34,955 bases of DNA from a virus (UHGV-0055450); one strand, 5' to 3'; shown: positions 5,878 through 34,470, counted from the first letter of the stretch. A program made the numbers and translations. The notes: generated by a model from the sequence alone, not told the origin.

Positions 5878-6462
5878 TTATTGTTTGTTTTTTTCGTTCT
5901 GGTTGATGACAAATTCAATGTAACTTTCGATCTTTGCTTTCTCGGTTTCGGGTAACAATGCGTAGCGCGAGCGGTCATAGTTGATGGTCGCAGGGTCGTG
6001 CGGGTGAATCAGTAATTCATAGCCGTGACGCCCGAATGCGGATGCAACATTCTCCAGGGTGGAAATGGAAACGCTGACCTCATTGTTTAACAGGCGGCTG
6101 ATTGTCACCTGGGCGACGCCGGATGCGCGGTGAAGTTTTCCCTGTGTTGAAAGGTCGCGGCTTTCGCTCATCCAGCGTTCCAGGTTGTGAGCCGCCAGCT
6201 GACCAATGTCGCTTGGGCCGACAGGCTGAAAACCTTCCTGAGAAAGCGAGCGATCGATATCAAGCCAGTTACGGGGTTTATTGGCGGCAGCTTCAATTTT
6301 TCGCGCAACCTGGTCGCCGATAACCTTCTTGCCAAGAGCCCAGCGGTTTACCAGATTTGCCTGAGTTCCAAGTTTTTCTGCCATCCGCGTCTGAACACCA
6401 TTGAATTCACGGTCGATCAAGTCGTTGAGATTTTGCCTGCGGACGTCCTGGATACTTTTCAT
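5878..6462 (-). CDS. CI-like prophage repressor with two helix-turn-helix regions and no recognisable LexA-type autopeptidase domain
   Basis: 194 aa; HTH-like segments QTRMAEKLGTQANLVNRWALGKK and ASGVAQVTISRLLNNEVSVSISTLENVASAFG; no Ser/Lys peptidase motif seen; divergent from the cro-like gene across an operator-rich spacer. Confidence 0.75.
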   Translation of the reverse strand: MKSIQDVRRQNLNDLIDREFNGVQTRMAEKLGTQANLVNRWALGKKVIGDQVARKIEAAANKPRNWLDIDRSLSQEGFQPVGPSDIGQLAAHNLERWMSESRDLSTQGKLHRASGVAQVTISRLLNNEVSVSISTLENVASAFGRHGYELLIHPHDPATINYDRSRYALLPETEKAKIESYIEFVINQNEKNKQ

Positions 6463-15593: not shown

Positions 15594-15670
15594 TGGCGTG
15601 GCATGCAGGATTCGAACCTGCGACCAACCGCTTAGAAGGCGGTTGCTCTGTCCAACTGAGCTAATGCCAC
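15594..15670 (-). tRNA. tRNA-Arg (anticodon UCU), phage-borne variant
   Basis: Reverse complement GTGGCAT-TA-GCTC-AGTTGGACA-GAGC-A-ACCGC-CTTCTAA-GCGGT-TGGTC-GCAGG-TTCGAAT-CCTGC-ATGCCAC-G-CCA folds as a cloverleaf with a 7-bp acceptor stem, TCT anticodon and encoded CCA. Body resembles argU; stems differ. Confidence 0.85.
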
Positions 15671-33029: not shown

Positions 33030-33044
33030 TTACCTTTAAGGTAA
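33030..33044. promoter_or_regulatory. Operator palindrome overlapping the RBS of the 55-aa gene
   Basis: Perfect TTACCtttaaGGTAAtagtac; on the minus strand its half-site runs directly into the AGGAGG Shine-Dalgarno. Confidence 0.5.
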
Positions 33045-33115: not shown

Positions 33116-33808
33116 TCAGAAGAACCCAGCCTTGTCGTTGATGTACTCCGCGTGTGTCTGGATATCACGCAGGCATTTGCTCACACCGACGATGTAGCAG
33201 AACATGGTGGTCAGCTCCGCCGCCGCGCCCGATACGTCGTGCCCGTCGTCCTGTAACTGGTTCAGCAGATTCATCAGCAGTGAGTTCTCCGTCAGGCCGA
33301 GAACACCAGACGGCGAATGAATCAGGCTGCGGTAGCCGGGCTTCAGCGGGGCGCTGTAGGTTTTGTTCTCTATCTTCATTGCCTGCATCACTGCTGATGC
33401 TGTGGCGTTTGCAACCTGGTCGGCAACCATCTTTATGCGTTCTTCCTGCGGGAGCGAGTTTTTAATGTAACTTCCGGTGCGGCGGATCTGAGGAAGAACC
33501 TCACCTGTAACCCATTCAAGAAATCTGAATGCTCTCGTTCCCTCAGTCATTGCCTCTTTGCAACGCAGAATAAGGATGTAGAGACCTGATTCTGAAACGA
33601 TGGATAGTTCTTGTATTCCACCAGGGGTCTGTATTGAATACAGCCCCTTTTTGTTCCAGCCTTTTTTATCAAGTTTTCTCGCTTGTGTAACATCAATATT
33701 CAAAGCATTGCACACATCTTTGGTGACAAACCAAGGTTCTCCGTCAATCATGAACATACGGATCTGGCAGGATGACTCAAAGGAAAAGATGGAAGGTTTG
33801 GTATTCAT
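33116..33808 (-). CDS. ant: Antirepressor with N-terminal Bro-N-like domain
   Basis: MNTKPSIFSFESSCQIRMFMIDGEPWFVTKDVCNALNI fits the Bro-N/antirepressor N-terminal pattern; ATG at 33808 with AAGGTGA upstream. The track ORF extends to 33853. Confidence 0.75.
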   Translation of the reverse strand: MNTKPSIFSFESSCQIRMFMIDGEPWFVTKDVCNALNIDVTQARKLDKKGWNKKGLYSIQTPGGIQELSIVSESGLYILILRCKEAMTEGTRAFRFLEWVTGEVLPQIRRTGSYIKNSLPQEERIKMVADQVANATASAVMQAMKIENKTYSAPLKPGYRSLIHSPSGVLGLTENSLLMNLLNQLQDDGHDVSGAAAELTTMFCYIVGVSKCLRDIQTHAEYINDKAGFF

Positions 33809-33962
33809 GGCGATCACCTTTGTAGTTAGGTTAATCACCACCGCTGAGACCAATCAGATGGTGGTGAACTGTGCAGAGTTGGTCTTACCGGCTACAAAGG
33901 AACCCGGCGCACCTTTCGGTGCCCCCACACAGCCCACCATAGAATAGGTGCGCTTTACACAT

Positions 33963-33981
33963 AAAAAAACCGCTTATGCGG
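33963..33981 (-). terminator. Weak rho-independent terminator upstream of ant
   Basis: Minus strand reads CCGC-ATAA-GCGG followed by seven T; short stem. Confidence 0.4.
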
Positions 33982-33994
33982 CATATGTGCCTCT

Positions 33995-34049
33995 GTAGTA
34001 ATCCGGGAGACCAATCCCGGCACTGGATTTTGCCAGTGCCCGATTACTA
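33995..34049 (-). ncRNA. Candidate structured regulatory RNA or attenuator between the two antirepressor genes
   Basis: Outer stem TAGTAATC / GATTACTA encloses two hairpins, GCACTGG-(CAAAAT)-CCAGTGC and CGGGA-(TTGGTC)-TCCCG, and is followed by the terminator at 33963-33981; no ORF. Confidence 0.25.
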
Positions 34050-34075
34050 TGGCACAAGAGGAGTGCGATGTAAAT

Positions 34076-34090
34076 TTACCGCAAAGGTAA
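34076..34090. promoter_or_regulatory. Operator palindrome between the Ant-paralog and ant
   Basis: Perfect TTACCgcaaaGGTAAatataag. Confidence 0.5.
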
Positions 34091-34121
34091 ATATAAGCAC
34101 TCCATTTGGTAATTGCAAACC

Positions 34122-34379
34122 TTATCTGGTTTGTTTTCGTAATTGTTCGGCACAATAGTCGAGATGTGTTTGCAGATCCTGCATAGACATCTGTGAGCTG
34201 GTGACGTAGTTAATCAGTGCAGTCAGTTCGGCAAGTGGGCCATCGACATTAAATCCATCCTTATCGAGATCCCGGAGTAATTTCATCAAGTGCGATCCCT
34301 CCACCAGTGACCTGACGCCTCCCGGCGTGTGAATCCTTTCGGTAAATCCGTCTTCCAGTGGATAGTGATACTGCTGCAT
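34122..34379 (-). CDS. Small protein homologous to the antirepressor C-terminal domain (about 85 aa)
   Basis: SHLMKLLRDLDKDGFNVDGPLAELTALINYVTSSQMSMQDLQTHLDYC aligns with the Ant C-terminus SLLMNLLNQLQDDGHDVSGAAAELTTMFCYIVGVSKCLRDIQTHAEYI; ATG at 34379 with GGAGAAG upstream. The track ORF extends to 34397. Confidence 0.6.
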   Translation of the reverse strand: MQQYHYPLEDGFTERIHTPGGVRSLVEGSHLMKLLRDLDKDGFNVDGPLAELTALINYVTSSQMSMQDLQTHLDYCAEQLRKQTR

Positions 34380-34398: not shown

Positions 34399-34418
34399 AA
34401 CTGTATATTTATACAGTA
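34399..34418. promoter_or_regulatory. LexA (SOS) box in the promoter of the leftward antirepressor operon
   Basis: AACTGTATATTTATACAGTA matches the consensus TACTGTATATATATACAGTA at 18 of 20 positions with the CTGT-N8-ACAG core intact; 20 bp upstream of the 34379 start. Confidence 0.65.
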
Positions 34419-34455
34419 TCAAATAATTTGTTTGCTATCCAGCACGTTTTGCAAA

Positions 34456-34470
34456 TTACCCGAAAGGTAA
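34456..34470. promoter_or_regulatory. Operator palindrome between the ant operon and the tailspike gene
   Basis: Perfect TTACCcgaaaGGTAAtatctat. Confidence 0.5.

Follow-up and report, generated by a model that had tools for sequence, protein, structure and literature searches.

The 313-bp gap (34121-33809, minus strand) that separates the stop codon of an 85-aa open reading frame (ORF85) from the ATG (33808) of the antirepressor gene ant very probably contains an immI-type antirepressor control module of the kind known from the P1 c4 and Gifsy-1 IsrK systems. In support of this identification, full-length isrK and C4 matches, both scoring above the curated cut-offs, are located directly upstream of a BRO-N antirepressor gene in the window, that is, the whole 34,955-nt stretch of DNA that was analyzed, and the same tandem is present in 17 other phage loci, in which the structures are conserved and the C4 loops co-vary with their targets. 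The flagged stretch is a real feature, far beyond chance, and an instance of known curated RNA families, the closest homologs of which have been studied experimentally, rather than a new kind of system. The first-pass annotation, which had proposed a structured regulatory RNA module controlling the antirepressor, was right in kind, given the isrK and C4 Rfam matches upstream of ant; the spacing it gave between the Ant paralog and ant is exactly 313 bp, and the gap, as it had noted, holds no credible gene.

The window represents an E. coli prophage of the phiV10/epsilon15-like group (Uetakevirus), and the region is 91-98% identical to the corresponding regions of phages EC.W1-9, vB_EcoP_ZX5, phiV10, and TL-2011b and 82% identical to that of Enterobacter phage Tyrion. 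The regulated gene, ant (33116-33808, minus strand), encodes a 230-aa BRO-N antirepressor that matched Pfam Bro-N (E = 1.8e-13) and PHROG 130, "anti-repressor Ant" (E = 2e-50). In vB_EcoP_ZX5, one of the relatives, overexpression of ORF4, a BRO-N protein that is the positional counterpart of ant and for which only 39% identity to phiV10 Ant was reported, results in less lysogeny (PMC9782041). The product of ORF85 (34379-34122, minus strand) is 42% identical to Ant residues 149-222, so that its earlier label as an Ant paralog holds for the C-terminal domain of Ant but not beyond it; Pfam searches with ORF85 and two ORFs located beyond ant yielded nothing useful.

When the entire window was compared with Rfam at the curated thresholds, three matches emerged, two of them in the gap, on the minus strand. 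The first is the IsrK small RNA (RF01394; 34039-33963), which covers model positions 1-77 of 77 with a score of 74.7 bits, against a cut-off of 50, and the second is the C4 antisense RNA (RF01695; 33944-33857), which covers model positions 1-87 of 87 with a score of 78.6 bits, the cut-off being 45. The two are 18 nt apart and lie straight upstream of the BRO-N ant gene. Used as the query in a sensitive search, the 301-bp RNA region retrieved 225 phage records, among them those of Gifsy-1, VT2-Sakai and many other Stx phages, APSE-1, APSE-2, SfV, Hafnia phage yong2, a Klebsiella phage, and an Actinobacillus phage. From these records, 17 phage loci were retrieved for comparative analysis, making 18 loci together with the window. 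The isrK-then-C4 tandem was identified in all 17 of the other loci, with an isrK-C4 spacing of 18-27 nt, and an ant-, rha-, or BRO-type gene is located directly 3' of the tandem in nearly all of them, with two records being unannotated at this position.

The minimum free energy (MFE) fold of the IsrK region contains both hairpins and the terminator, namely, hairpin 1 (34039-34020), hairpin 2 (34019-34004), which presents the a1 site in its loop, and a 5-bp terminator hairpin (33982-33969) that was also detected by the terminator scan together with the adjoining U7 run (33969-33963). The short hairpin with a U7 tract that had been placed at 33981-33963 is accordingly present. Among 17 sequences, 94% of the cells of hairpin 1 are paired, with 5 compensatory pairs, and 98% of those of hairpin 2, with 0 compensatory pairs; the inner hairpins are thus conserved in homologous prophages with compensatory changes, as determined in a covariation analysis of the kind that had been suggested. 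In interpreting the hairpins and terminator as a c4 analog, the first-pass annotation named the correct family, that of P1/P7 c4, but the wrong sub-element: these structures constitute IsrK, and IsrK, or the a1b1 leader, is a target mimic or activator partner, not an antisense repressor. Its other suggestion, a transcriptional attenuator, was partly apt, in that the intrinsic terminator corresponds to the leaky terminator described for IsrK of Gifsy-1 (PMC4825925).

Physically, IsrK and the a1b1 leader that belongs to the c4 system of phage P1 are one and the same element. In a permissive scan, the c4-a1b1 model (RF03163, "a1, b1 targets of C4 antisense RNA") matched 34052-34000 with E = 1.5e-8, and the cross-model scores are 39.9 bits for the window on c4-a1b1 and 35 bits for P1 on isrK, the latter match extending from end to end and including the terminator-like hairpin. 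The 39.9 bits are below the curated cut-off of 46.7 for RF03163, and formal membership in this family was rejected, but the shortfall sits in 13 unpaired 5' positions that correspond to promoter sequence; the element is therefore filed as isrK and considered functionally equivalent to a1b1. Indeed, it has the layout of an a1b1 leader, with two hairpins, a1 in the loop of the second hairpin, b1 immediately 3' of it, and the C4 RNA downstream.

The promoter scan placed a candidate isrK promoter, TTTACA-17-CATAGT, at 34074-34046 on the minus strand, with the -35 hexamer TTTACA at 34074-34069, the -10 hexamer CATAGT at 34051-34046, and a TG in the 17-nt spacer; transcription is predicted to start at ~G34039, the first base of the isrK model. 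In 18 of the 18 loci, a -10-like hexamer is separated from hairpin 1 by an identical distance, and the invariant promoter columns across these loci are A2, A4, and T6 of the -10 hexamer. The homologous hexamer is annotated in the P1 record as the -10 element of P1c4/P51b, and the numbering of the Gifsy-1 mutants (G28 and G31 in a1; C159 and C162 in a') agrees with a start at base 1 of the Rfam model. A promoter motif with correct spacing is thus conserved, from which a discrete IsrK of ~77 nt and a read-through isoform may be produced, and the description of the element as lying inside the antirepressor operon is not simply correct, considering that this promoter is conserved. Abutting the -35 hexamer is a palindrome, TTACC-N5-GGTAA (34076-34090), embedded in a longer imperfect inverted repeat (~34102-34059) with hairpin potential; it looks like an operator of the prophage repressor, in parallel to the C1 operator Oc4 of P1.

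The C4 RNA is located within the span flagged by the first-pass annotation, between the terminator and the second copy of a repeated 10-mer, where it was overlooked, although the guess of a P1/P7 c4-like RNA regulator was borne out by the full-length match. Its predicted fold includes a 17-bp closing stem, a GAAA-capped hairpin P2 (GCACC-GAAA-GGUGC), and a hairpin P3 with a 12-nt loop that contains b' (CCUUUGUAG; 33900-33892), with a' (AGACCAA; 33885-33879) located in an 8-nt junction. This fold (MFE -43.6 kcal/mol, z = -4.5) is the same as the Rfam consensus, in which 99.6% of the cells are paired among 17 sequences and 12 pairs show compensatory change, compared with 35-50% paired cells for slid partners and 0 of 500 shuffles as good. 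The C4 RNA ends in a tRNA-like ACCA. In an alignment with P1 c4, this 3' end and the G located at the stem base coincide with the ends annotated for the P1 RNA, which predicts a mature C4 of ~80 nt (~33938-33860). In P1, the 5' end of c4 is processed by RNase P. By analogy with P1, and in line with these sequence hints, C4 may be excised from a precursor and may repress ant translation in this prophage as well.

Each of the two target sites that precede C4 has a counterpart between C4 and ant. The a1 site (UUGGUCU; 34014-34008) in the loop of IsrK hairpin 2 is identical to a2 (UUGGUCU; 33853-33847), which is found 4 nt after C4, and both b1 (CUACAGAGG; 33998-33990), located in the IsrK linker, and b2 (CUACAAAGG; 33825-33817), which overlaps the ant Shine-Dalgarno sequence (AAGGUGA; 33820-33814), are complementary to b'. 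The 10-mer GAGACCAATC, which the first-pass annotation had regarded as a repeated hairpin motif, is actually this pair of C4 target sites, its cores being a1 and a2, the sites targeted by the C4 junction a'. It occurs in exactly two copies in the window (34007-34016 and 33846-33855 in plus-strand coordinates), with 0.06 expected and two copies found in 0 of 100 shuffles; the second copy (33855-33846) ends 38 nt before the ant ATG, so that the direct repeat reported ~40 nt upstream of ant is real, with its second coordinate one off. In the window, the predicted duplexes amount to -9.2 kcal/mol for both a':a1 and a':a2, -14.1 kcal/mol for b':b1, and -12.0 kcal/mol for b':b2, and the C4 core pairs with IsrK at -30.7 kcal/mol, with 10 of 1000 shuffles being equally good.

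Across the loci, the loops vary extensively, with 5 a' types, 14 b' types, and 15 distinct a'/b' combinations, and the targets vary with them. The local b' is matched by both b1 and b2 in every locus, and the local a' is matched by a1 in every locus and by a2 in all but SfV, which has one mismatch, with a2 co-varying with a' over the 5 a' types. The cognate b' target b2 ranks first in 14 of the 18 loci and third or better in the remaining 4, and b2 lies over the ribosome-binding site in 17 of 18. The mean duplex energy is approximately -12 kcal/mol for cognate b' and -10 kcal/mol for cognate a', compared with approximately -6.5 kcal/mol for non-cognate pairs, and the summed cognate energy of -651.7 kcal/mol, against -451 +/- 20 kcal/mol with permuted partners, was equaled in 0 of 20000 permutations, statistics that overstate independence to the extent that the 18 loci are related. 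The conclusion on loop-target matching is nonetheless safe because of the many distinct loop types. The C4 RNA of the window pairs poorly with phiV10-type targets, and vice versa, suggesting that the a'/b' types of the window and phiV10 represent classes of different specificity, similar to what has been reported for P1 and P7. An additional conserved segment, GGUGGUGA (33842-33835), is complementary to the 3' strand of the stem that closes C4 (UCACCACC; 33867-33860); the helix that the two can form, seen in MFE folds, would put a2 in a hairpin loop; 96% of its cells are paired in the 17 loci, and it is near-invariant, with a single compensatory change, in Actinobacillus phage pPE4.

The first-pass annotation had also described a three-way junction at 34049-33995. 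The segment does fold in silico as described (MFE -26.9 kcal/mol, z = -5.1, equaled by 0 of 200 shuffles), and the two inner hairpins are conserved, but the outer stem, a predicted pairing between UAGUAAUC (34049-34042) and GAUUACUA (34002-33995), falls in the promoter, with its 5' arm overlapping the -10 hexamer and the discriminator. Because this arm is the -10/discriminator of a promoter conserved in 18 of 18 loci, the outer stem is probably not part of the small RNA, and it could be relevant solely to transcripts starting further upstream. Such transcripts are at the core of an alternative explanation, which we consider unlikely, namely, that the three-way-junction RNA and the terminator, within a transcript initiated at the ORF85 promoter, form a cis attenuator of ant, in which the outer stem would be a genuine helix, subject to regulation and masking the beginning of b1. 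The junction is indeed the MFE fold whenever the 5' arm is included, also in a 90-nt context, and there is no canonical U-tract terminator between ORF85 and IsrK, so that upstream transcripts may enter the region. The pairing statistics are ambiguous: 64.7% of the outer-stem cells are paired among the 17 sequences, above the 55% of shuffles and the 32-50% of slid controls, with 5 pairs changed on both sides, but this figure is inflated because the window itself served to derive the structure and the 17 sequences include 5 close relatives. An occasional "third stem," absent from many sequences, has been reported (Weinberg et al. 2010) and is somewhat similar to the outer stem, although not clearly the same. 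However, the invariant columns of the 5' arm follow the -10 consensus rather than the pairing, the P1 annotation assigns that very hexamer to the -10 of P1c4, and the curated isrK and c4-a1b1 models are both devoid of such a stem.

Most improbable is the possibility that the gap codes for small proteins and owes its conservation to them, even if it contains ORFs of 28 aa (33940-33854, minus strand; the counterpart of Gifsy-1 orf45) and 66 aa (34155-33955, minus strand), several phage records annotate CDSs across the region, and Gifsy-1 orf45 is translated and needed for anrP expression (PMC4825925). The ORF that starts at the conserved AUG consists of 8, 15, 28, 31, 33, 35, 36, or 45 codons depending on the locus, in some loci it is fused in frame to ant, and its frame shifts after loop-length indels, variation that led us to reject a conserved peptide equivalent to orf45. 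The substitutions, moreover, are compensatory and track base-pairing, not codon structure, and the authors of the Gifsy-1 study likewise found conserved nucleotides along with variable amino acids (PMC4825925). The notion that the element is a mere terminator of ORF85, with the 10-mer being a chance or recombination relic and ant being transcribed from a separate promoter, is hardly credible at all: although a terminator-like hairpin with a U7 run does follow ORF85, this reading is already contradicted by covariation, with the hairpins and target sites being conserved and co-varying with C4 in phages that lack ORF85 (Gifsy-1, Stx, APSE, and SfV), and, in addition, the minus-strand promoter scan from the terminator to ant detected no promoter-like site, and the two 10-mer copies are to be set against the chance expectation given above.

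The immI-type module of the window can be compared with several well-characterized systems. Like the window, the Gifsy-1 IsrK/STnc1160 (orf45)/anrP locus combines an IsrK-specific promoter, two hairpins, a leaky terminator, a C4-type RNA, and an antirepressor gene, with the middle of IsrK being complementary to a'b', a pairing that is predicted for the window and proven for Gifsy-1 (PMC4825925), and with b2 located over the antirepressor Shine-Dalgarno sequence. The two loci differ in the sequences of a' (AGACCAA in the window vs. CGCCAA in Gifsy-1) and b' (CCUUUGUAG vs. CGGUGAU) and in the upstream ORF (uORF), which has 28 codons and ends 46 nt before ant in the window, whereas that of Gifsy-1 has 45 codons and an AUGA overlap. 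The genomic context is different as well: the window module resides in a podovirus late/tail-fiber region next to a gene with a LexA box and that of Gifsy-1 downstream of antQ, isrJ follows the antirepressor gene in Gifsy-1 but is absent after ant in the window, and the repressor-type palindrome at the isrK promoter is present in the window, unlike in Gifsy-1.

Citron and Schuster are said to have described, in 1990, the immI region of P1/P7, in which the c4 antisense RNA controls icd-ant through a1 b1/a2 b2. The P1 record (NC_005856) shows the order C1 operator Oc4, promoters, a1, b1, c4, a2, b2, and icd-ant. The window and P1/P7 share an operator, a promoter, a1 in the loop of hairpin 2, b1, a C4 RNA with the same fold, a2 a few nucleotides after it, b2 at the ribosome-binding site, and an antirepressor operon next to it; furthermore, in the literature on P1/P7 heteroimmunity, the loop and target sequences are the specificity determinants, as appears to be the case here. 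Among the differences, icd lies between b2 and ant in P1, whereas the window has no icd and b2 is directly at the ant ribosome-binding site; the window Ant belongs to the BRO-N proteins, and its size bears no relation to that of P1 Ant1/2; the window leader, unlike that of P1/P7, ends in a clear U7 terminator predicted to give a discrete small RNA; and the operator is a TTACC-N5-GGTAA palindrome in the window vs. an asymmetric C1 site in P1.

More remote parallels are provided by phages P4 and P22. In satellite phage P4 (CI RNA; seqA, seqB, and seqC), as in the window, a processed antisense RNA is positioned between complementary sites on one transcript, and IsrK was considered a structural homolog of SeqA by the authors of the Gifsy-1 study (PMC4825925); the outcome in P4, however, is premature transcription termination of replication genes, not antirepressor control. 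In P22, the sar RNA of immI also limits antirepressor synthesis, but it is a cis-antisense RNA made from the opposite strand across the ant ribosome-binding site, whereas the window RNAs are on the ant strand and are predicted to act through short loop-target pairings, so that the parallel with P22 sar drawn by the first-pass annotation does not apply. A search for opposite-strand promoters within ant found only one weak match (33723-33751, 9 of 12 positions), with 3.3 expected by chance, and sar-type control was rejected.

In the mechanism that we propose for the window, the promoter at 34074-34046 would start transcription at ~34039 and would probably be shut by the prophage repressor via the adjacent TTACC-N5-GGTAA palindrome. 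Most transcripts would end at the weak intrinsic terminator (33982-33963), yielding the 77-nt IsrK, with a1 exposed in the hairpin 2 loop and b1 following directly, and a minority would read through into C4 and ant. C4, which carries the 3' ACCA in the window copy, would be excised, its 5' end possibly being cut by RNase P, by analogy with P1. Whether free or as part of the long RNA, C4 would base-pair via its a' junction and b' loop with a2 and b2 of the ant leader, and the b2 pairing would cover the Shine-Dalgarno sequence, so that no Ant is made and the lysogen is stable. IsrK, in turn, would bind through a1 and b1 to the a'b' sites, either those of free C4 or those that the long transcript contains in its C4 segment; when abundant, it would compete for a'b', turning on ant translation, and the antirepressor would push the prophage to induction. 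The present analysis establishes the family membership, the structures, the promoter and terminator motifs, and the co-varying complementarity; for the window, we infer the transcription start, the processing of C4, the occlusion of the ribosome-binding site, the relief by IsrK, and the control of the promoter by the repressor.

Several of these steps have experimental counterparts. In Gifsy-1, the isrK promoter drives both the short IsrK and a translationally silent read-through isrK-orf45-anrP RNA, within which the middle of IsrK pairs with ~30 nt of orf45, that is, the C4 a'b' region, and this pairing, helix b-I, was proven by the compensatory mutations G28A/C162U and G31A/C159U (PMC4825925). 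In the predicted MFE fold of the read-through RNA of the window, the IsrK middle (a1b1) likewise pairs with a'b' of C4, and this modeled helix is helix b-I of Gifsy-1. Supplied in trans, Gifsy-1 IsrK binds the same orf45 region and raises anrP translation >100-fold, and a stable processed RNA, STnc1160, comes from the C4 region; Hfq binding and trans-activation of antirepressor translation are known only for the IsrK of Gifsy-1 (PMC4825925). For P1/P7, the c4 RNA represses ant via a2/b2 pairing, with a1/b1 proposed as c4 competitors (Weinberg et al. 2010 supplement, which summarizes Citron and Schuster), and both the a1b1 motif and the idea of competition were described by Weinberg et al. 2010. 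However, mutation of a1 in the long Gifsy-1 transcript raised, rather than lowered, anrP translation, and activation depended on the 45-codon uORF being translated, the stop codon of which overlaps the anrP start (PMC4825925); on both counts, the simple picture, with C4 blocking the ribosome-binding site and IsrK acting as a decoy, differs from the published mechanism. Considering the 28-codon uORF of the window mentioned above, and the length and frame of the uORF, which are not conserved across loci, the coupling step of Gifsy-1 is not transferable as it stands: translational coupling of this type is not conserved and possibly does not operate in the window.

Beyond the copy at the isrK promoter, the TTACC-N5-GGTAA palindrome recurs throughout the window, in 14 copies vs. 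0.46 expected, all intergenic. Two copies are located in the divergent region between a repressor-like HTH_3 ORF (5878-6462) and a cro-like ORF, another (34456-34470) precedes ORF85, and yet another (33030-33044) follows ant. The arms are conserved and the spacer is variable in phiV10, Tyrion, Kp ST512phi13.3, TL-2011b, and EC.W1-9. Our literature search for an operator palindrome in epsilon15/phiV10 found no description, and the report on ZX5 mentions neither the palindrome nor the RNAs (PMC9782041). ORF85 is also preceded by a near-consensus LexA box, TACTGTATAAATATACAGTT (34419-34400, minus strand), which ends 20 nt before its ATG and is conserved in phiV10, TL-2011b, EC.W1-9, Tyrion, and E. 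coli AR_0085. Matches to CTGT-N8-ACAG were detected upstream of IsrK in SfV, PhiR47_1, 2H10, and Stx2c phages; the one in SfV was rejected as a LexA box and judged to be a chance occurrence, with a spacer (AAGTAACC) unlike that of a LexA box and a location within coding sequence.

We also entertain a three-step proposal, distinctly unlikely by our own estimate, in which SOS signaling may reach antirepressor translation through RNA in this phage group. The LexA-box promoter of ORF85 would start transcripts that run into the IsrK region; these RNAs would deliver extra a1b1 decoys in the three-way-junction fold, which would be accessible only to them; and the extra decoys would titrate C4, freeing Ant. 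If this proposal were true, IsrK would be a ratio-sensing anti-antisense "sponge," and the two Uetakevirus a'/b' types, those of the window and phiV10, would define heteroimmunity classes, as in P1/P7.

Recognition of the module is of immediate value for annotation. Of 5426 complete E. coli genomes, 467 contain the 301-bp module, an identical copy being found, for instance, in E. coli AR_0085 (NZ_CP029741, 795706-796006), but the RefSeq annotation of an identical E. coli copy contains no ncRNA feature, and several phage records instead annotate spurious CDSs over the module region. It also becomes clear from the comparison that "IsrK" and the "a1b1 leader" of P1, still handled as separate systems in a 2025 review, are one element. 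Recognizing the module also explains how such prophages keep their antirepressor silent.

Upstream of IsrK on the minus strand, an 85-aa ORF (ORF85; 34122-34379) encodes a stand-alone paralog of the C-terminal domain of the antirepressor Ant, sharing 42% identity with Ant residues 149-222 and matching PHROG 450. The 3' end of a near-consensus LexA (SOS) box, TACTGTATAAATATACAGTT (34400-34419; core CTGT-N8-ACAG, 34401-34416), lies 20 nt upstream of the ORF85 ATG, and the position of this box is kept in phiV10, TL-2011b, EC.W1-9, Tyrion, and E. coli AR_0085. Because a conserved near-consensus LexA box precedes its start codon, the sequence suggests that ORF85 is an SOS-inducible small antirepressor-like protein, a neighbor of the RNA-controlled ant. 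The layout of ORF85 and ant recalls P1 Ant1/Ant2, in which a full protein is accompanied by a shorter C-terminal form.

The palindrome TTACC-N5-GGTAA is present in 14 copies in the window, against 0.46 expected, all of them intergenic (662, 5744, 5806, 6518, 6566, 6903, 8849, 8911, 12833, 12851, 15993, 33030, 34076, and 34456). Of these, two fall in the interval that separates the HTH_3 repressor-like gene (5878-6462) from a cro-like ORF, and another sits directly beside the isrK promoter (34074-34046). The set probably represents a dispersed operator network to which the prophage repressor would bind, loosely resembling the C1 operators that are scattered in P1. On the 3' side of the ORF85 stop codon, the operator palindrome is enclosed by a longer inverted repeat (34059-34102), and this repeat may also serve the ORF85 transcript as a 3' hairpin or a weak terminator. 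Its phiV10 counterpart (locus L001, 2847-2887) forms a perfect 18-bp stem (-33 kcal/mol, z = -6.9), which is interrupted in the window.

Downstream of a2, the ant-leader target of C4 segment a', the conserved GGUGGUGA (33835-33842) can pair with the closing stem of C4, on its 3' strand (33860-33867); across 17 loci, this helix is 96% paired, with only one compensatory change. Such pairing would expose a2 in the loop of a hairpin, a structure that unprocessed transcripts would adopt instead of the C4 fold. Four deposited coding sequences span the IsrK and C4 genes, namely, SfV orf37 (L005 1125-1961), PhiR47_1 'Rha' (L009 1125-2273), yong2 'Ash' (L007 1288-1971), and a 2H10 gene (L012 1328-1873). 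In all four phages, the C4 stem has an AUG at its base that happens to share the reading frame of the downstream gene, and these annotations are probably over-extended gene calls.

The prophage also carries a tRNA-Arg gene (anticodon TCT; 15594-15670, minus strand); Gifsy-1 likewise has a tRNA-Arg, a short way downstream of its isrK-anrP-isrJ locus. In the Stx2a phage Stx2_EH0787, an Rfam match to sRNA-Xcc1 (RF02221; L013 2143-2226, 75.7 bits) follows the C4 RNA at a distance of ~560 nt.

Closely related Uetakeviruses fall into two differing a'/b' types: a' AGACCAA with b' CCUUUGUAG in the window, EC.W1-9, Tyrion, and a Klebsiella phage, and a' CGCCAA with b' CCUUUUAG in phiV10 (L001) and TL-2011b (L014). 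Because cross-pairing between the two is predicted to be poor, the modeled interactions suggest that these types represent heteroimmunity classes of immI, the antirepressor control module.
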